Below are positions 3,293 through 55,333 of a DNA stretch of 64,000 bases, piece by piece (position 1 is the stretch's first letter; each line of letters starts with the position of its first letter). The notes under the pieces are model-generated. The model made no database searches, had not been told where the DNA came from, and was given only the letters and a program-made list of their open reading frames with translations. Made by a program: the position numbers and the translations under genes. This stretch comes from Patescibacteria group bacterium (lineage in GTDB: Bacteria; Patescibacteriota; Minisyncoccia; Phycocordibacterales; JBHPGB01), in assembly GCA_042571085.1 (NCBI GenBank), contig JBHPGB010000002.1, forward strand, positions 6,796 through 70,795. The letters run 5' to 3'.

Positions 3293-5902
3293 TTATAAAT
3301 GTTTTTTCAAATACTCTCCTGTAATTGATTTTTTGTTATCGGCCACCTGCTCTGGTGTACCCTTCGCAATCAAATTTCCGCCACCCTTTCCTCCCTCAGG
3401 GCCGATGTCTACTATATAATCAGCTGTTTTTACTATATCTAAATTGTGTTCAATTAAAACAACCGTGTTTCCTTTATCTACTAATTTCTGTAAAATTTCA
3501 ATCAATTTTTTCACATCTTCATAATGCAAACCAACAGTTGGCTCATCCAAAAGATAAATAGTTTTTTGCACATGAGGACGATACAATTCTGAAGAAATTT
3601 TTACTCTCTGTGCTTCTCCACCAGAAAGCGTCGTTGCTGATTGTCCCAATTCCAAATACCCAAGCCCTACATCATTCAAACTTTTTAGACGATCGTGAAT
3701 TGCTGGAATATCTTCAAAAAATTCCAGAGCTTCTTCAACTGTCATTTTAAGCACATCGTAAATATTTTTCTTTTTATACTTTACTTCCAAAGTTTCTTTT
3801 TCAAATCTTTTTCCGCCACACACATCACACTTCACATACACAGTCGGCAGAAAATGCATTTCAACAGCTATCTGCCCATTACCTTGGCATGATTCGCAGC
3901 GACCACCCTTCACGTTAAAACTAAAGCGGTTAGCTTTCCAGCCACGAAATCGCGCTTCTTCTGTTGCCGCAAACAAATCTCTAATATGTGTAAACGAACC
4001 AGTATATGTAGCTGGGTTAGATCTTGGTGTGCGTCCAATCGGTGCTTGATCTATAAGAATAGAACGAGAAACATATTCAGAACCAGTAAAGTCTGCGCAA
4101 TTATATATATCATTGCTTCTATATTTTTTATCGAAACGCGCCCGTAAGTTTTTATACAAAATCTCATGCATCAAAGAGCTTTTTCCAGAACCAGATACAC
4201 CGGTAATCACACTCATTTTCCCAAGCGGAAAATCAACATTCATGTTTTTGATGTTAAATATATTTCCTCCGCGAATTTTGATTGAACCTTTGTCTTGATC
4301 GCGGCGTTTATGCGGTACTTCTATTTCAGTATCTCCACGCAAATAATCAAGTGTTAAAGATTTTGATGGGTTTGTTTTTGCTGATAAAAGTTTTTCCAAA
4401 TCATCTGCAACAACAATCTCACCGCCATGTATACCCGCCTTTGGACCGATGTCCACAATATAATCAGAAGCAAAAATAGTATCCTCATCGTGCTCGACAA
4501 CAATGATGGTGTTGCCAAGGTCACGTAGGTTTTGAAGTGTTTTTATGAGACGGTCATTATCACGCTGGTGTAGGCCAATAGTAGGCTCATCAAGCACATA
4601 CAGTGCTCCAACCAAGCGAGAACCAAGCTGTGATGCCAAGCGAATACGCTGTGCTTCTCCACCAGAGAGTGTGTTGGCGCGTCTATCTAATGTAAGATAT
4701 TCAATTCCAACATCAAGCATGAAAAATAACCGAGCTTCAATTTCCCTCATAACAGGCTCGGATATTTCTTTATCTCTAACAGACAATTTCAAACTAGTGA
4801 AAAATTCTGCTGCTTCGCCAATAGACATTGATGTCACTTCTACTATATTTTTACCCCCGATTAAAACATTAAGCGCTTCCGATCTTAATCTCGCACCTTT
4901 ACACGTATCACATACCTCTTTACCAAAGAAATGTTTTGTACCAAGGCCATTACAAGCCTCACAAGCACCATAAGGTGAGTTGAATGAGAAAAGTCTTGGC
5001 TCAACTTCTGGATATGAAAAACCATCCTCCGGACAAGAAAACTTCGATGAAAGTATTATTTCATCATCATCTATGCGCACGCGTACAAGCCCATCAGCTT
5101 CATCAAGAGCGCGCTCTAGAGATTCCTGTAAGCGTTGTTTAGTATCTTTCGCATTCTCTTTAAAATCAAGTAAATCAATTTCATCCACCAAAACGTCGAT
5201 GTCATGCTTCTTTGTTTTGGTGAGCACAATCTGGTCACGTAAAGATTTCATTTTTCCGTCAACTCGCACATTTATATACCCTTTGCCTAGTAAATCATAA
5301 AGAAGTTGGTAATACTCACCCTTTCTCCCACGCACCACCGGTGCAAAAAGCTGTACTGAGCTAGACTTATATTCCACACCCATTACTTTTTTTGTACCAT
5401 TTTTCTTTTGTGTCTTTCCTGCACCTTTCACTTTTTTCAAAACAAAATTCAAAATCTCTTCATTAGAAAGCTTTTCAATTTCCCTACCACACTCCAAACA
5501 ATGCGGCTTTCCAATACGCGCAAAAAGTACACGCATATAATCGTATATTTCTGTAATAGTCGCCACTGTTGAACGTGGGTTGTTTGATCTACTTTTCTGA
5601 TCAATAGAAATCGCTGGAGAAAGCCCGACGATCTCATCAACATCTGGCTTCTGCATTTGACGCAAAAATTGTCGCGCGTATGCAGACAAAGATTCTACAT
5701 AACGACGCTGTCCTTCAGCAAAAATAGTATCAAAAGCAAGAGAAGATTTTCCTGATCCAGATAATCCAGTAAACACAACCATCTTATTGCGAGGCATTTC
5801 TACCGTCACATCTTTGAGATTATGTGTGCGGGCACCTTTTACTATTATTTTGCCAGACTCGAACATGTCTGATTCTTTTTTGTTATTTGTATTCTTTTTC
5901 AT
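3293..5902 (-). CDS. uvrA: excinuclease ABC subunit A (start uncertain: MKKNT at 5902 or MFESG at 5866)
   Basis: Two ABC ATPase modules ([20 protein letters not shown]), zinc-finger CxxC pairs, LSGGEAQR signatures. Confidence 0.9.
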
Positions 5903-5966
5903 GACAGAAATCGCCCCCACATCATTCATAGGGGTTATATACAAATAAATATACCAGAATACTTAG

Positions 5967-6125
5967 AGCATGTCCAAAAATTCTAGACTGCTGCGAAATT
6001 GTGTTGCGAGCTGCGAATATCGGCTCAAAAAACTCACCGTAGCTACGGCTATGGCTCATTTTCCTCGCCGCATTCTCGCCTCGCAACCCAATCTCTCGCC
6101 ACGTCAATAGTTTTTGGACATGCTC
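5967..6125. repeat. long imperfect palindrome in the uvrA/ORF6205 divergent intergenic region, with perfect 15-bp terminal inverted repeats
   Basis: GAGCATGTCCAAAAA at 5967-5981 and TTTTTGGACATGCTC at 6111-6125. Inner arms partly complementary (TTGCGAGCTGCGAAT / ATTCTCGCCTCGCAA). Centre CCGTAGCTACGG. Confidence 0.6.
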
Positions 6126-6204
6126 TGCAATTACACAAACTCTTTGTTTTTTTGTAAATACGTGCTACCTTTGTGTTAGAAATGTTTTTAAAGAGGACAA
6201 AATC

Positions 6205-6558
6205 ATGGCAATTCCGCCCCAAATATACCCAGAGCTTATACCAGAACCCCTTTCAGAAAAACAAAAACTTGAGTTAGAAAATCTTATAAAGATTATTGAT
6301 AAAAAACTCGAGAAAGCAGACAGTCCTGATTTGGTACGAGTACGAATCTCAATGGAGTGCGAAATACCAGAATGCGCAGTATTATTTGGGGTTGGCCCTT
6401 TCTACATTAAGAAAGGCTGGTACGCAATACTCTTTGACACAGAACAGGCGAAGCTTTACGAGAGCCGTCTTGAGGGATTTTGGATTCTCGATTTTTACAA
6501 AAAATCACATCTTGTGTTTGGTACAAAAACATCCAACTGGGCAACCACACGCAAATAA
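6205..6558 (+). CDS. hypothetical protein (117 aa)
   Basis: AAGAGGA RBS. Followed by a perfect 13-bp-stem terminator at 6561-6600. Confidence 0.5.
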   Translation: MAIPPQIYPELIPEPLSEKQKLELENLIKIIDKKLEKADSPDLVRVRISMECEIPECAVLFGVGPFYIKKGWYAILFDTEQAKLYESRLEGFWILDFYKKSHLVFGTKTSNWATTRK

Positions 6559-49365: not shown

Positions 49366-49559
49366 AAATTAAACAGGAGTGACTATTTGAAACAAACCCC
49401 AGTGAAATATCATAGTTGTAATATGTTTTTGCAAAAACATATTACAACTATGACTATTTTAAAATTTTCTAAGAAAGGAAAATTTTAAAAATCTTTCACG
49501 GGGTGATGATTTTTATAGTCATAAAATCACTTTGTGATTTTATTCCTTAAAAATCTATC

Positions 49560-49886
49560 ATGCCTGAAAACTATTCAAAAAAGAAAGTGAGTGAGGTTTT
49601 GAAAACACTCGCTGCCGATTTTCTTCAAAAGGAGTCTAGCGGCAAATCGCTCATAACGGTGACCGATTGTACGGTTGCAGACAACCAGCGTAATGCGGTA
49701 ATATTCTTTAGTGTACTCCCAGCAGAAGCAGAGGAAGAGGCGCTGAACTTCACTAAACGACAAAGGAGAGAGTTTCGTGAGTATATAAAAAAACATTCAA
49801 GATTGCGATATGTTCCTTTTGTAGATTTCGAAATTGATCTCGGTGAAAAGAATAGACAAAGGATTGAGGAATTATTAAATGAATAA
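49560..49886 (+). CDS. rbfA: ribosome-binding factor A
   Basis: KH-like RbfA fold motifs. Conserved infB-rbfA order. Confidence 0.8.
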   Translation: MPENYSKKKVSEVLKTLAADFLQKESSGKSLITVTDCTVADNQRNAVIFFSVLPAEAEEEALNFTKRQRREFREYIKKHSRLRYVPFVDFEIDLGEKNRQRIEELLNE

Positions 49887-49893
49887 ATAGAAA

Positions 49894-49921
49894 GGTCTGG
49901 TGGCGAAGTGGTAACGTAGCG
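49894..49921 (+). pseudogene. tRNA-Cys-like 5' fragment (26 of 28 nt identical to the 5' part of tRNA-Cys 120 nt downstream)
   Basis: GGTCTGGTGGCGAAGTGGTAACGTAGCG versus GGCCTGGTGGCGAAGTGGTAACGCAGCG. Followed by a family-2 motif fragment (AAAGGAGTGAAGCGAC) rather than an anticodon arm. Confidence 0.55.
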
Positions 49922-50041
49922 CTCAATGAAGAAAGGAGTGAAGCGACTATTCTGAATTAGTGCAAAGCCGATAATCGATTCCCGTACATTATCATGTTAG
50001 AATTGTTACAATATTAAAATAAGCAAAGCTTGAAATTATAA

Positions 50042-50113
50042 GGCCTGGTGGCGAAGTGGTAACGCAGCGGTTTGCAAAACCGATATGCGCGGGTTCAATT
50101 CCCGCCCAGGCCT
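50042..50113 (+). tRNA. tRNA-Cys (anticodon GCA)
   Basis: Acceptor GGCCTGG/CCAGGCC. Anticodon loop TTGCAAA. T-arm GCGGG-TTCAATT-CCCGC. Confidence 0.75.
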
Positions 50114-50200
50114 CAATTTTCCATGCGATTTAATTATTAAACAGGTAAACGCATATATTTACGTATTGCGTATTGGTTTACCTAATGATATTATGAATAA

Positions 50201-50692
50201 ATGCACGGAAAAGAGAAAAAAAGAAGATGGTCAGAAGATGACTTAAAAAATGCTGTGTTGAATTCTACAAGTATTCGACAAGTTCTGGGTAAGCTTAATT
50301 TAAAACAAGCTGGTGGAAATTATGTGCAGGTCAAATATTATATTAAAAAATATAATATTGATATAAAACATTTTACTGGACAAGGCTGGAACAAGGGAAT
50401 GCGCGGCATTGGTAAACCTAGAATTTCTTTAAAAGAAATTCTAACAAAAAATAGTTCTTTTCAAAGTTATAAATTAAAAAAAAGACTTTTTAAAGAAGGT
50501 CTAAAAAAACCACAATGTGAAGAGTGTGGCTGGGCAAAAAAATCTAAAGACGGAAGAATTCCTTTAGAGTTAGATCATGTGAATGGTACCCGAACAGATA
50601 ATCGATTAGAAAATTTACGAGTACTATGCCCAAACTGCCATAGTCTAAAACCTACACATCGTGGATTGAACAAAAAAAAGGGCCAGTGGTGA
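50201..50692 (+). CDS. free-standing HNH endonuclease (homing-endonuclease-like), embedded in the tRNA cluster; the stop overlaps the 5' end of tRNA-Leu(TAA)
   Basis: HNH motif CEECGW...LELDHVNGTRTDNRLENLRVLCPNCH. Basic N-terminal DNA-binding-like region. Confidence 0.7.
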   Translation: MHGKEKKRRWSEDDLKNAVLNSTSIRQVLGKLNLKQAGGNYVQVKYYIKKYNIDIKHFTGQGWNKGMRGIGKPRISLKEILTKNSSFQSYKLKKRLFKEGLKKPQCEECGWAKKSKDGRIPLELDHVNGTRTDNRLENLRVLCPNCHSLKPTHRGLNKKKGQW

Positions 50693-50762
50693 AATCGGTA
50701 TACACGCAACACTTAAAATGTTGTCCGCTTTGCGGGTGAGGGTTCAAGTCCCTCCTGGCCCA
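50680..50762 (+). tRNA. tRNA-Leu (anticodon TAA), type II
   Basis: Acceptor GGGCCAG/CTGGCCC. Anticodon stem CAACA/TGTTG, loop CTTAAAA. Long variable arm. T-arm AGGGTTCAAGTCCCT. Confidence 0.75.
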
Positions 50763-50826
50763 CAAAATCTAATGCAGATTTTACGAATCTGTGTTAATAT
50801 TTTTAAATTAATGAATTGATACATAT

Positions 50827-50899: not shown

Positions 50900-50975
50900 C
50901 ACGCAGCGTTAGCGTAGTGCACAACCGGAAGCACAGCAATTTTGAAAAAATTGCGTCATGCGGATTTGAAAAGCT

Positions 50976-51032
50976 TTTGAGATAGATTGGAGTGCGGAGC
51001 ACGAACAATATATCCAAAAGGTTGAAGTGTGA
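50976..51032. repeat. conserved tRNA-cluster motif (family 2), copy downstream of tRNA-Lys
   Basis: TTTGAGATAGATTGGAGTGCGGAGCACGAACAATATATCCAAAAGGTTGAAGTGTGA. Covarying triloop hairpin GTGC-GGA-GCAC (GTG-AGG-TAC and TGC-GAA-GCA in other copies). Confidence 0.65.
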
Positions 51033-51134
51033 TTTTTATGAACACTGAAAGACCATTTGAGTTAATTTCGAATCTGAAAGATGAAGAAAATAACCAAATG
51101 GTATACTGCTCATGTAATGAGGGCAGAATCTGTA

Positions 51135-51162
51135 AGATTCAAATCCTTCCGGGCGGACACGC
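51135..51162 (+). repeat. direct repeat of the 3' 28 nt of tRNA-Lys, about 230 nt downstream of the gene
   Basis: GATTCAAATCCTTCCGGGCGGACACGCA versus tRNA GGTTCAAATCCTTCCGGGCGGACACGCA (27 of 28 nt). Confidence 0.7.
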
Positions 51163-51185
51163 AATTTAGCGTAAAATTAAATAAT

Positions 51186-51267: not shown

Positions 51268-51404
51268 CAAAACAAAAAAGTGTGATGCGTCAGCATTACA
51301 CTTTTATTGTTTTGTAGTGTGGTGGAGAAACTCGAAAAAAGCTTCCGGTATACAAGAAGCGACTGGAAGGAGCTTCTTGTCGGAAGCGACGGGGTCGCGT
51401 AGCT

Positions 51405-51475
51405 TAGATATTTTGGAGTGCGAAGCATGAACAAAATATCAAGCGAAGGCGACCGAGTCTCTTCACCCGCACAAA
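51405..51475 (+). repeat. family-2 motif copy fused to a 22-nt direct repeat of the tRNA-Leu(TAG) 3' end
   Basis: TAGATATTTTGGAGTGCGAAGCATGAACAAAATATCAAGCGAAGGCGAC followed by CGAGTCTCTTCACCCGCACAAA (identical to the tRNA 3' end plus 3 flanking nt). Confidence 0.7.
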
Positions 51476-51638
51476 TAAAAGACGAAAATGCTATGCATTT
51501 TCGTCTTTTTGCTTGTATTTAAAAAGTGATACTACCTTGACTTTTAACCTATTTTATGCTTAAATATAGCCAGAACAGTTCGGGGCTTTAGGGATTAATT
51601 CCCTCCCCTTTTGACAATTTTTTGACTGGAGAATAATC

Positions 51639-53349: not shown

Positions 53350-53649
53350 CTAAACAGGGTTTGTGAATCCAAAAGTATTGGCTAAGAATGTAACTATGCC
53401 CATAACGGAAATCATAATAAACATACCAAAGAGCCCCCACATGATATGCTTCTTGCCTTGCTCACGCGCATTTTCATCATTTGCTTGAAACAAGAAGCGT
53501 GCGATTCCCCAAAGGAATAATACAAGGGCAAGTGCAAACAAAAATCCAATAAGAGGATTTATTATGTTGTCTACAACCCTATCAATAAGTGGCTCAAGCC
53601 CAGACTCTACTACCGCAGCATGCACTGTTTGTACATTTAGAACATTCAT
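53350..53649 (-). CDS. VirB2/TrbC-like small membrane protein, paralogue 1 (start at MNVLNV; the ORF-track start at 53697 would overlap the upstream paralogue)
   Basis: Two hydrophobic helices separated by a conserved charged loop ANDENAREQGKKH. Confidence 0.45.
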   Translation of the reverse strand: MNVLNVQTVHAAVVESGLEPLIDRVVDNIINPLIGFLFALALVLFLWGIARFLFQANDENAREQGKKHIMWGLFGMFIMISVMGIVTFLANTFGFTNPV

Positions 53650-53653
53650 AGAT

Positions 53654-53977
53654 TTATATTCTTGGTAATGTGATTGTACCACCTGTCTGTACACCAAATG
53701 TATTAGCTACAACTTCAACAAGACCCCACACCGCAACCATCACGAAGAGTGCCAAGATACCATAGATCATGATGCTCTTTCCTTTTTCTTTATCTTCATC
53801 AGCCTTGAAGATGTACTGTGCCAATCCATAGAAAAATCCAATAAGAGCAACAGTCATCACAATTGGAATAATTAAATCCAATATTTGTTTAAACTTGTTT
53901 AAAACAGATATAGCATCTGCTGCCAATGCAACACTAGGAAGTGCTACTGCACCAGCAATAATAAGAAATCTTTTCAT
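53654..53977 (-). CDS. VirB2/TrbC-like small membrane protein, paralogue 2
   Basis: Signal peptide. Two TM helices. Loop KADEDKEKGKS. Confidence 0.45.
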   Translation of the reverse strand: MKRFLIIAGAVALPSVALAADAISVLNKFKQILDLIIPIVMTVALIGFFYGLAQYIFKADEDKEKGKSIMIYGILALFVMVAVWGLVEVVANTFGVQTGGTITLPRI

Positions 53978-54117
53978 ACAAATAAAATTAATTGATTAAA
54001 TTGATTAAAAAAATTAAAAGCGACCTTGTAATTTATACTTATATAATAGCCAATATACTCACAAATAACAAATCAAATGTGGAAAATTAATTTTCAACCT
54101 ACAAAATAAAGGTGTTA

Positions 54118-54459
54118 TTAAAAACCGAAAAATGTTCTCCGTACAGCAATCGCAATTCCCCACACTGCAATAAGAGCAAATAAGGCAAAAATACCAAATA
54201 CCATAGCTTTGCGCCCTTCCTCGCGAGCATTTGCATCGTCTGCCTTCAATACCATCTTCGCAATTCCCCAAAAAAATCCTGCCAAAGCGGCTGTTATTAG
54301 AATAGGGATCGCAATATCAAAAATACGTGTGAAAATACCTAGAAAATCTGCAAAATTTGTAGGAGCCGCAGCAAAAGAAATGGTTGGGCTAAGTAATAAT
54401 ACCACGTATAAAATTGCCGTAGATAAGATATTTATTCTTCTGTTTTTTAAATTTAACAT
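54118..54459 (-). CDS. VirB2/TrbC-like small membrane protein, paralogue 3
   Basis: Signal peptide. Two TM helices. Loop KADDANAREEGRK. Confidence 0.45.
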   Translation of the reverse strand: MLNLKNRRINILSTAILYVVLLLSPTISFAAAPTNFADFLGIFTRIFDIAIPILITAALAGFFWGIAKMVLKADDANAREEGRKAMVFGIFALFALIAVWGIAIAVRRTFFGF

Positions 54460-54547
54460 TTTTAAATTTCACGACTCGGCTTCGCCTCGCTGCACTGCGT
54501 TTTGTATTCAATCACTGCGTTCTTGAACAAAACGGGAGCATAATAAT

Positions 54548-54904
54548 TTACCTTAATGTGCTTATTGTTCCGCCTATCGCCTCTGCAAGAACCCATGCGC
54601 CAAGTATAATCGCTCCGCCAATGATAGACCACGTAAGTGCTGTTTTTGCTTCTCCAAGCTTTGTTTCATTACCTTGTGCCTTAATATACAAAAATCCAGA
54701 ATACACTATTGCAAGCACAACAACAGGAAAACCGATGTCAGCTACAACCTTAAGTACTTTCTGCAAAAATATATATATAGTATCAGTGCCCCTAAGAGGG
54801 TTTTCCAAATCCTGACTTATTACTGGCGTGTCTGCAAAAACAGTGTTTACGGAAGCAAAAAAAGCAACGAGTGATGTGTAATAAATTTTATTAAATAATT
54901 TCAT
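54548..54904 (-). CDS. VirB2/TrbC-like small membrane protein, paralogue 4
   Basis: Signal peptide. Two TM helices. Loop KAQGNETKLGEAK. Confidence 0.45.
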   Translation of the reverse strand: MKLFNKIYYTSLVAFFASVNTVFADTPVISQDLENPLRGTDTIYIFLQKVLKVVADIGFPVVVLAIVYSGFLYIKAQGNETKLGEAKTALTWSIIGGAIILGAWVLAEAIGGTISTLR

Positions 54905-54928
54905 AAGATTTTTATTAAAAGTATTAAA

Positions 54929-55333
54929 TTATCTCCCAAGTCTAATTGCCCAATCTTCTGCACCAAGACCTACAAGAATTGCTTTCACAATAAGCCACGC
55001 TGCAAGTATTATTACCAAGCCAATAAAAACAGATGTGAAAATTCCGTGTGCTTTTTTTATCTGTCCTGTATCCCCAGCTGCTGTAATATACATCCACCCA
55101 GCATACGCAAATGCAACCGCAGCAACAAATGGTGACGCCATTATTATAAATTCAATAATATTTTGAGCGAGTTGTACAAGCATATTAAAATCACAGTCTG
55201 GTTGTCCACTACCACCACATGGAACAAGTTTCTTCTCAGCGGCAAAAACAATAATCGGCATAAATAGCACCATACTCAATACTGTTGCATACAAAACCTT
55301 TATTATTTTGTTTTCATGTTTTAATGTTTTCAT
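54929..55333 (-). CDS. VirB2/TrbC-like small membrane protein, paralogue 5 (extra Cys pair)
   Basis: Signal peptide. CGGSGQPDC. Two TM helices. Loop AAGDTGQIKKAH. Confidence 0.45.
   Translation of the reverse strand: MKTLKHENKIIKVLYATVLSMVLFMPIIVFAAEKKLVPCGGSGQPDCDFNMLVQLAQNIIEFIIMASPFVAAVAFAYAGWMYITAAGDTGQIKKAHGIFTSVFIGLVIILAAWLIVKAILVGLGAEDWAIRLGR

Follow-up and report, generated by a model that had tools for sequence, protein, structure and literature searches.

We report that an open reading frame (ORF) wedged between two tRNA genes of a Patescibacteria group bacterium is probably a free-standing HNH homing endonuclease gene, active or recently so, whose home is the tRNA-Leu(UAA) gene immediately downstream. 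We give this reading a probability of about 0.72. The DNA analyzed, hereafter the window, is a stretch of 64,000 nucleotides (nt), and the ORF, at positions 50201 to 50692, encodes a protein of 163 amino acids (aa). An earlier note, made from the sequence alone, had placed such an ORF with an HNH motif between tRNA-Cys and tRNA-Leu(UAA), and both its coordinates and the motif were confirmed. The overlap with the tRNA gene is 13 nt, as the note had it (50680 to 50692, i.e., the last base of K160, then G161, Q162, W163, and the TGA), and its count of four overlapping codons holds when the stop is counted as one of them; tRNA ends taken from ARAGORN may be 1 to 2 bases off. The gene and its two tRNA neighbors are as follows.

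50201 to 50692, plus strand: probable HNH homing endonuclease gene, 163 aa, ATG start (ORF, profile and homologue searches)
50042 to 50114, plus strand: tRNA-Cys(GCA), the usual but non-obligatory upstream neighbor of the HNH gene (ARAGORN; Rfam, 66.4 bits)
50680 to 50763, plus strand: tRNA-Leu(UAA), the HNH-linked allele, with anticodon stem CAACA/TGTTG, i.e., C30:G40 (ARAGORN; Rfam, 61.3 bits)

The wider neighborhood consists of infB, rbfA, and further tRNA genes, and no second HNH copy was found within the 64-kb window. The homologue search showed that the identical protein is already recorded as "HNH endonuclease [Patescibacteria group bacterium]."

Homologues of the protein proved to be abundant. 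A word-index search yielded 3088 of them (clusters at 90% identity), and at least 566 matches were found in metagenomes. The best 120 homologues, the protein itself excluded, share 66 to 74% identity with it, are mostly 155 to 175 aa long, and belong to Campbell-, Magasanik-, Levy-, Moran-, Roizman-, and Nealsonbacteria, lineages of the candidate phyla radiation (CPR). In pairs with unsaturated synonymous distances, the ratio of nonsynonymous to synonymous substitutions (dN/dS) ranged from 0.035 to 0.06. Because 3088 homologues exist and dN/dS is this low, the ORF is a real gene rather than a chance reading frame, and a ratio of ~0.04 indicates strong purifying selection. The earlier note had considered a selfish endonuclease unusual in a reduced genome; judging by the cluster and metagenome counts, this family is very common in the CPR.

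We then looked at where these genes lie. In total, 87 occupied loci were compared, 7 from species-representative genomes and 80 from metagenomes. The search for the same gene in tRNA loci of related genomes, which the earlier note had proposed, gave a uniform answer: tRNA-Leu(UAA), on the same strand, is the next downstream feature in 85 of the 87 loci, and the contigs of the other two end before it could be reached. Apart from one read-through outlier, the first base of the tRNA falls between −53 and +22 nt from the HNH stop codon, and the last conserved protein motif (HRG) lies 16 to 36 nt from the tRNA start. The stop codon precedes the tRNA in 46 of 84 loci and falls inside it in the other 38; the overlap of the stop codon with the tRNA in the window is only incidental, and what the loci have kept is the contact of the HNH gene with the tRNA, with or without overlap. 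The upstream side is less constant. A tRNA-Cys on the plus strand precedes the HNH gene in 55 of the 87 loci, mostly at a distance of ~60 to 190 nt, and the remaining loci have tRNA-Ser, tRNA-Arg, tRNA-Gln, tRNA-Leu(UAG), a tRNA-Cys on the opposite strand, or no tRNA at this place. Since the abutment holds under such differing upstream contexts, the linkage of the HNH gene is to tRNA-Leu(UAA) itself.

To learn how often this address is occupied, relatives were sampled by way of neighboring RbfA homologues, irrespective of HNH, and their contigs were then inspected. The sample comprised 11 genomes, nine independent ones of the window's clade and two (L182 and L185) around an occupied Staskawiczbacteria locus, L046. 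The nine genomes share the order aminotransferase, DUF4446, infB, rbfA, and tRNA-Cys. Only 1 of the 11 carries the HNH gene: eight of the nine in the window's clade are empty and L095 is occupied, and both L182 and L185 are empty, with spacers of 14 to 17 nt. The empty layout, seen in seven genomes, is tRNA-Cys, a spacer of 13 to 51 nt, and tRNA-Leu(UAA), and tblastn detected no HNH remnants in the eight empty genomes of the window's clade. L095 has the block in inverted orientation, with the HNH gene again ending 2 nt short of tRNA-Leu(UAA). An occupancy of 1 in 11 at a fixed site is the pattern classically associated with homing endonuclease genes, not with core genes.

Some of the inspected genomes hold other material at or near the same spot. 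The spacer between tRNA-Cys and tRNA-Leu(UAA) contains GC-rich, hairpin-rich filler in L090 (3406 to 3622, 217 nt) and L096 (3404 to 3572, 169 nt), loci that are otherwise AT-rich, and the L090 filler terminates with a repeat of the tRNA-Cys 3′ end (CCCGGTCTACGCCTC); these fillers may be small non-coding mobile elements. In L098, the spacer holds an unrelated ORF for a 525-aa multi-pass membrane protein without a Pfam match (3439 to 5016), and a serine recombinase gene (5236 to 6342, minus strand) lies just past tRNA-Lys. The spot thus seems to accept other cargo. L096 also carries, a few kilobases from its empty tRNA-Leu site, an ORF resembling a homing endonuclease (6054 to 6330; weak LAGLIDADG_3 match), a reminder that such small genomes harbor further selfish nucleases.

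Occupied and empty sites differ in the tRNA-Leu(UAA) gene as well. The closest HNH-less relative is L089, whose IF2 and RbfA are 78% and 79% identical to those of the window. Between the two, tRNA-Leu(UAG) is 100% identical, tRNA-Lys 96%, tRNA-Cys 86%, and tRNA-Leu(UAA) 72%, which is the median identity to unrelated CPR alleles. Pairs of empty genomes with an IF2 identity of merely 67% still have tRNA-Leu(UAA) genes that are 80 to 100% identical. In the pairwise alignment, the HNH block (50115 to 50679) corresponds to a 35-nt spacer in L089, within a longer tract that differs between the two genomes.

49887 to 50790 (approximate), plus strand: tract differing from L089, comprising a pseudo-tRNA-Cys, tRNA-Cys, the HNH gene, and tRNA-Leu(UAA) (pairwise alignment)

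On either side of this tract the genomes agree: the 3′ end of rbfA is well conserved at the DNA level, and identity is 96 to 100% from tRNA-Lys onward.

The differences within the tRNA are not spread evenly. When occupied and empty alleles were compared in two clades, the first 26 nt (24 to 25 of 26 identical) and the T arm with the acceptor stem were found to be nearly the same, and the differences sit in the anticodon stem and the variable arm. L182 and L185, both empty, differ in the opposite way: compensatory exchanges have altered the acceptor and T stems, whereas the anticodon arm and the variable arm are the same in both. The pair C30:G40 is present in 72 of 86 HNH-linked alleles and in none of the 10 empty ones, all of which have G30:C40 with A31:U39, the type of E. 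coli and B. subtilis tRNA-Leu(UAA). Among the linked anticodon stems, CAACA/TGTTG occurs 29 times, CGACA/TGTCG 13 times, and CAGCA/TGCTG 12 times. Fisher's exact test for the association gave P = 3e-6, calculated with the first 8 empty alleles only and ignoring kinship. The 72% identity of tRNA-Leu(UAA) against 96 to 100% for the next two tRNAs, together with the mosaic seen in both clades, is consistent with co-conversion of the tRNA along with the HNH gene. From the position of the differences, the central tRNA-Leu segment (approximately positions 27 to 60) is the best candidate for the region recognized by the enzyme, and the altered allele is a candidate immunity allele.

The left border of the insertion was examined in 82 upstream regions aligned and anchored at the ATG. 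A short box copying the D loop and D stem of tRNA-Leu (GGTATACRC) is found there in the window, along with elements of a putative promoter.

50144 to 50152, plus strand: box GGTAAACGC, copy of the tRNA-Leu D-loop/D-stem, left-border element, 57 nt before the ATG (motif test)
50166 to 50194, plus strand: putative HNH promoter (consensus inference)
50166 to 50171, plus strand: −35 element of the putative promoter, TTGCGT
50176 to 50182, plus strand: inverted copy of the box, GTTTACC, between −35 and −10
50186 to 50194, plus strand: extended −10 element of the putative promoter, TGATATTAT (TGnTAnnWT consensus)

The box, in the form GGTAnnC(GC) on the sense strand, occurs in 41 of 78 loci, against 4.0 in shuffled sequences and 2 in an ORF-internal control, and its position is constant at 54 to 57 nt from the ATG. 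In five loci (L048, L054, L027, L065, and L082), the upstream match spans up to tRNA-Leu positions 1 to 26 (z of 6 to 14), and in L048 and L054 the copy of the tRNA 5′ end is seen to end at position 26. An ungapped match of each upstream region to its own D arm was modest (0.551 versus 0.504, P = 1.6e-5; P = 0.03 against the ORF control), the motif-based test being much clearer, and global alignment of the upstream region with the whole tRNA was over-gapped and uninformative. We read the left border as an insertion scar, that is, a partial and mostly decayed copy of the tRNA 5′ end in which the core of the D arm has been kept.

As for expression, the consensus TGnTAnnWT is found in 42 of the 82 loci and in none of the ORF controls, at a median of 6 nt before the ATG, and 16 of 43 loci, against an expectation of 1.2, carry the box in inverted form at −36 to −10. 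No Shine-Dalgarno sequence precedes the ATG in the window. Since the extended −10 ends six nt before the start codon, a leaderless mRNA is implied. A generic promoter scan missed this promoter because of its weak −35; the call was made by consensus, CPR promoters being without experimental characterization. Expression solely by read-through from the tRNA operon ("tRNA punctuation") was considered and set aside in view of the extended −10 conserved in the family alignment, and a promoter of its own appears more likely, to which read-through may add. A conserved 5′ hairpin masking the start codon, as in the T4 seg genes, was likewise rejected: over 44 loci, the mean z was −1.0 and the AUG was fully paired in 9. 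The 5′ region of the window itself folds well (−22.1 kcal/mol, z of −2.8). That two inverted, target-like half-sites around the promoter might serve autoregulation is speculation by analogy.

The protein itself was analyzed by profile, sequence, and structure comparisons, which divide it into two parts.

50510 to 50659, plus strand: HNH (beta-beta-alpha-metal) nuclease domain, aa 104 to 153, with a CxxC...CxxC zinc site and H126, N138, and H147 (Pfam, alignment, and fold)
50228 to 50500, plus strand: N-terminal helical region, aa 10 to 100, presumed DNA-recognition part (AlphaFold model)

The nuclease domain, of the HNH/His-Me finger type (Pfam PF01844 and PF13392), scores above the gathering cutoffs of the Pfam families HNH_3 (26.8 bits; cutoff, 24.8) and HNH (25.9 bits; cutoff, 21.4) over aa 106 to 150. 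The earlier note had allowed for a loss of the catalytic His and Asn on careful alignment; both are retained, and all catalytic and zinc-binding residues (C106, C109, H126, N138, C143, C146, and H147) are invariant in an alignment of 18 sequences. In the AlphaFold model (pLDDT of 80.8), the HNH part comprises strands 123 to 126 and 139 to 142 followed by helix 144 to 148, and the N-terminal part forms a three-helix bundle of helix-turn-helix (HTH)/Myb-like appearance (helices 12 to 20, 25 to 31, and 38 to 50) with a small helical unit at 77 to 98. The N-terminal region matches no Pfam family, is conserved throughout the family, and gave weak Foldseek matches to SANT/Myb DNA-binding domains. 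For the HNH domain, the best Foldseek matches were the HNH domains of McrA, Cap5, and Gme, all weak (E ≥ 0.01).

Family searches pointed to homing enzymes. The phage HNH endonuclease family phrog_10822 matches aa 5 to 161 and thus includes the N-terminal region (E of 8.1e-47), the best PADLOC model is PDLC03673, "HEase" (homing endonuclease; E of 9.1e-21, aa 76 to 157), and HegA of phage T5, which that model resembles, is 48.8% identical over 82 aa (aa 76 to 157; E of 1e-22). Together with phage relatives that lie inside tRNA clusters, these matches bear out the free-standing, homing-type character that the earlier note had ascribed to the gene. An exhaustive search returned 19,481 clusters (50% identity) at E ≤ 1e-3, of which 345 reached E ≤ 1e-30; with 19,481 clusters found, the HNH superfamily is very large.

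Four other assignments were tried and rejected. IscB (RNA-guided, marked by RuvC and bridge-helix domains and an omega-RNA) scored 17.9 bits against an NCBIfam cutoff of 175, with the HNH part alone matching a protein of 163 aa, and ZorE (type II Zorya) scored 28.1 bits against a cutoff of 600, the neighbors being infB, rbfA, and tRNAs, with no ZorA or ZorB. Membership in the GIY-YIG enzymes (T4 SegB type) was dismissed since HNH families alone match, any likeness to SegB being one of mode of action. An intron-encoded HNH enzyme (I-HmuI type, with a group I intron in tRNA-Leu(UAA)) and a split tRNA were dismissed as well: the tRNA genes are uninterrupted, the ORF sits on the upstream side of tRNA-Leu(UAA), and Rfam showed no intron family at thresholds as permissive as E ≤ 1. 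Two side observations on the protein may be added. Longer relatives of 210 to 350 aa (P0002, P0241 to P0243, P0247, and others) match the query in two or three stretches and have tandem N-terminal helical modules ahead of a single HNH domain. The profile of aa 54 to 101 (50360 to 50500; W-N-K-G-x-x-G-I-G-K-P-R-I-x-L-x-x-I-L) matched annexin XII repeats in the PDB with a summed E of 6e-5; no individual stretch was significant, and this is probably a chance resemblance to the K-G-x-G-T endonexin motif. Otherwise, the PDB sequence search gave weak McrA matches.

Relatives from phages (IMG/VR) are at most 56% identical to the protein, and nearly all of them lie in tRNA clusters. Among those with at least 43% identity, 16 of 29 directly adjoin tRNA-Leu(UAA), the tRNA being 50 to 98 nt upstream of the match in 11 of the 16 and abutting the ORF end in 5. 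The anticodon-stem type of tRNA-Leu(UAA) genes beside these phage relatives showed no consistent pattern. More distant phage relatives (~35 to 43% identity; L117 and L126 to L139, e.g., L127, L129, L130, L132, and L134) are located near tRNA-Leu(CAA), Gln, Asp, Arg, Phe, and Leu(GAG)/Leu(UAG), which suggests a wider endonuclease family with each member tied to a particular tRNA gene.

Based on these results, we propose the following course of events. The N-terminal HTH-type region and the C-terminal HNH domain would recognize the HNH-less allele of tRNA-Leu(UAA) and nick or cut it, the segment recognized most likely spanning the D arm, the anticodon stem, and the variable arm. Repair would copy the HNH gene, promoter and ORF, from the occupied allele and with it the donor's version of the tRNA, whose anticodon stem and variable arm are different and which presumably resists cutting. 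On its left, the unit inserted in this way would carry what is left of a copy of the tRNA 5′ end, partial or decayed and ending at position 26; on its right would stand the intact tRNA, with the ORF packed close to it (a gap of 0 to 8 nt or an overlap). Transcription would start from the gene's own extended −10 promoter, give a leaderless mRNA, and run into tRNA-Leu. RNase P would then separate mRNA and tRNA, and since the ORF reaches or enters the tRNA, we propose that this processing trims the mRNA 3′ end. In the window, this cleavage would remove the stop codon and probably keep expression low, as has been proposed for T4 SegB.

Several known systems share parts of this arrangement. The tRNA region of phage T5 encodes HNH enzymes including F-TflI together with F-TflII and F-TflIV (Akulenko et al. 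2004, as cited in PMC2330249). T5 HegA (T5.075), along with HegC and HegD, belongs to the same nuclease family, and their genes are likewise free-standing among tRNAs. The T5 enzymes are reportedly site-specific nicking enzymes. As in the window, ORFs run into the 5′ end of the tRNA that follows: hegD, hegC, and T5.069 do so by 14 to 24 nt. HegA differs in its length of 228 aa, with a C-terminal extension and another N-terminal region, and the T5 genes are phage-borne, whereas the window gene is chromosomal in a CPR bacterium and strictly tied to one tRNA species.

SegB of phage T4, a GIY-YIG enzyme, has been shown experimentally to recognize a conserved element of tRNA genes; its gene is absent from close relatives, and its homing replaces the recipient's tRNA genes (PMC2330249). 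RNase P cleaves between its last codon and the stop codon, which was proposed to damp expression (PMC2330249). The window gene resembles segB in being free-standing between tRNA genes and missing from relatives, and in the proposed mechanism it would likewise convert the adjoining tRNA. SegB has the GIY-YIG fold, targets the T-psi-C element of many tRNAs, and acts in phage co-infection; the window protein, in contrast, is an HNH enzyme for which the evidence points to the anticodon and variable region of one tRNA. HNH genes have also been described as core genes of some phage tRNA clusters (PMC6409571).

Two further comparisons are looser. The target-like D-arm box, present as an inverted pair around the gene's own promoter, might permit binding and self-repression by the enzyme, in analogy to the intron-encoded GIY-YIG enzyme I-TevI, which reportedly represses itself through an operator resembling its homing site (Edgell et al. 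2004); the analogy is a pure one, I-TevI belonging to another enzyme family and the window gene having no intron. Like integrative elements that insert into tRNA genes and bring a replacement tRNA end with them, the unit has a partial tRNA copy on one side, and the tRNA on its other side is intact. Unlike them, it is ~0.55 kb long, consists of the nuclease alone without an integrase, and duplicates the 5′ 26 nt of the tRNA rather than its 3′ end.

A number of observations weigh against reading the gene as a homing endonuclease gene of the usual kind. Empty sites were sampled in small number, from 10 genomes of two clades and with statistics that ignore kinship, and the 87 occupied loci were picked by similarity to the query. 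A canonical G30:C40-type stem occurs in ~8 to 14 of the 86 linked alleles, the change of tRNA-Leu allele between the window and L089 may have occurred in either lineage, and the predicted cleavage site is placed from allele differences only. Taken alone, the D-arm box of the window is not significant. Moreover, a selfish gene of the typical, short-lived sort would behave differently in several respects. In the same loci, the mean pairwise identity is 63 to 65% for HNH, 41% for IF2, and 39% for RbfA, and no pair combines more than 80% HNH identity with less than 60% IF2 identity; direct signs of recent long-range transfer are thus missing. The G+C content (GC) of the gene tracks that of the host (r = 0.86), and nearly all of the 87 copies are full-length, the exceptions being L007 (N-terminally truncated), L068 (cut by the contig end), and L084 (read-through).

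The remaining evolutionary data help in placing these points. HNH is more conserved than IF2 and RbfA in 99 to 100% of locus pairs, its identity staying flat at ~62 to 65% across IF2 identities of 30 to 60%, and high HNH identity goes with high host identity wherever both are known. Correlations among HNH, IF2, and tRNA-Leu distances are weak (rho of 0.08 to 0.14) because HNH identity is flat at ~64%, and they are indecisive on horizontal transfer. The GC of the gene is below that of its flanks in 64 of 68 loci. In a crude neighbor-joining tree, the 82 CPR sequences form a single clade with all phage sequences outside, and its sister group is phage contigs L104 to L106, in which the ORF likewise abuts tRNA-Leu(UAA). 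Therefore, the HNH gene is a long-term resident of the CPR rather than a recent distant arrival, and its patchy occupancy and the replacement of alleles indicate short-range gain and loss.

Such conservation would be explained by a domesticated nuclease of benefit to its host, which would cut incoming DNA carrying the canonical tRNA-Leu(UAA), be it in phage tRNA clusters or in DNA of competitors that these cells, being naturally competent, take up, while the host's own altered allele would be immune. A homing endonuclease would in this case have given rise to an exclusion or defense function. A dN/dS of ~0.04, identity above that of IF2 in almost every pair, adaptation of GC to the host, and the intactness of almost all copies all fit this explanation. 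Suitable targets exist: phage tRNA clusters often carry tRNA-Leu(UAA), many with the canonical stem, and one reported patescibacterial phage has a tRNA-Leu(UAA) as well (PMC13059738). The HNH domain also resembles those of the defense nucleases ZorE, Cap5, and McrA. However, a core function of benefit to the host would be expected in more than 1 of 11 close relatives, the setting of infB, rbfA, and tRNAs offers no defense-island neighbors, and the best PADLOC match is a homing endonuclease model rather than a defense system. We regard domestication as an improbable account of the gene, although a defense role and homing are mutually compatible.

We consider it quite improbable that the CPR inherited the gene vertically since ancient times for a cellular role (e.g., in DNA repair or expression of the tRNA operon) and lost it many times, its position merely reflecting operon conservation. 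The order infB, rbfA, tRNA-Cys, HNH, and tRNA-Leu is indeed found in at least 32 loci whose IF2 is 29 to 53% identical to that of the window, and the agreement of HNH with host identity and host GC and the monophyly of the CPR clade are as vertical descent would have them. Yet 10 of 11 syntenic relatives are empty, and remnants were not found. A deletion would leave the adjacent allele unchanged, but tRNA-Leu is the most divergent tRNA of the region (72% versus 96 to 100%) and a mosaic. Furthermore, HNH stays beside tRNA-Leu under other upstream contexts and after inversion, the partial tRNA-Leu copy at the left border looks like an insertion scar, and the nearest relatives are phage homing endonucleases. 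Finally, chance placement near tRNAs of a generic, non-specific HNH nuclease (McrA-like, restricting or nicking) is hardly credible, and neither is a spurious ORF: the closest solved structures are indeed McrA-type HNH domains, if weakly matched, but chance adjacency is excluded by the 85 of 85 testable loci adjoining tRNA-Leu(UAA), dN/dS is 0.04, and the match to a homing endonuclease family is full-length, including the N-terminal region.

The tract upstream of the HNH gene and the tRNA cluster downstream of it contain other partial tRNA copies. The one closest to the HNH gene is the pseudo-tRNA-Cys.

49888 to 49987, plus strand: degenerate tRNA-Cys pseudo-copy right after the rbfA stop codon, with the 5′ 28 nt like those of an intact gene, an insertion of ~41 nt, and a broken T arm (repeat and sequence reading)

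It was recognized through a repeat, D3 (49885 to 49921 versus 50033 to 50069; 86% identity), and neither ARAGORN nor Rfam called it as a tRNA. The copy lies where the HNH-less L089 has its tRNA-Cys and may represent the resident tRNA-Cys after displacement. Its diagnostic bases conflict: two agree with L089, and the anticodon-stem halves agree with the intact copy of the window. A 155-nt filler at the same place in L097 proved to be unrelated sequence. In L093, a similar pseudo-tRNA-Cys lies beside the real one (~3340 to 3420, minus strand).

Downstream, tRNA-Lys(CUU) and tRNA-Leu(UAG) are each followed by an insert that is closed by a direct repeat of the respective tRNA 3′ end. The first insert (50901 to 51163) is closed by a repeat at 51134 to 51163 (97% identical), and the second (51269 to 51480) by a repeat at 51454 to 51480 (93% identical). 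Both inserts measure 200 to 260 nt and have a 35-nt motif in common (50980 to 51014 and 51406 to 51440), of which no further copy was found in the window or in any retrieved locus. Both resemble att-type scars left by small integrated elements. A tRNA-Lys duplicate, with a different insert, is present also in L089, where HNH is absent, and for this reason we conclude that the 3′ duplicates of tRNA-Lys and tRNA-Leu(UAG) were not made by the HNH enzyme. The earlier note had seen in the enzyme a source of both the gene-conversion tracts and the partial tRNA duplications throughout the cluster. Of this, the local replaced tract, including tRNA-Leu(UAA), does accompany the gene; the partial duplications throughout the cluster, one of which recurs in L089, cannot be attributed to it.

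Two features of the window outside the tRNA cluster were also observed. A perfect palindrome of 22+22 nt lies directly 3′ of infB (49410 to 49453) and scored as terminator-like, though rbfA comes next. On the minus strand, 53350 to 55333 encodes five small proteins (107 to 134 aa), each with a signal or transmembrane segment and a second transmembrane segment. The run resembles TrbC/VirB2-type pilins, a relative in L091 being flagged, weakly, as PF18895 (T4SS_pilin), and is followed by a 435-aa periplasmic-binding-like protein.

Free-standing homing endonuclease genes in tRNA clusters, with the ORF touching a tRNA, are known from phages. Our literature search found no description of a CPR-wide chromosomal clade at a single tRNA-Leu(UAA) address, though one may exist, and likewise none of a linked altered tRNA allele, a left-border tRNA copy with a D-arm box, a leaderless promoter, or conservation above that of IF2 in such a gene.

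The HNH gene and the altered tRNA-Leu(UAA) allele might even be a "drive and immunity" cassette that has lasted for long in a large part of the CPR. The nuclease would read the canonical segment from the D arm through the anticodon stem to the variable arm, C30:G40 would confer immunity, the D-arm boxes at the promoter would act as the operator, and the pair would be kept because it would also exclude incoming DNA with the canonical allele, be it from phage tRNA clusters or from competitors. We think this unlikely; if true, a selfish gene would have reshaped an essential tRNA in many lineages while doubling as a defense. The specificity of the enzyme is directly testable, since the predicted target, the resistant allele, and the candidate operator can all be synthesized, and the protein might serve as a compact (~160 aa) sequence-specific nuclease or nickase.

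Taken together, these results present a phage-type homing gene of tRNA clusters as a widespread chromosomal resident of the CPR/Patescibacteria, always at the 5′ end of tRNA-Leu(UAA). It probably offers a concrete case, open to testing, in which the spread of a selfish gene rewrites part of an essential tRNA, namely its anticodon stem and variable arm, and a natural marker for gene flow among unculturable organisms. It also poses the question of why a supposedly selfish gene exceeds IF2 in conservation.

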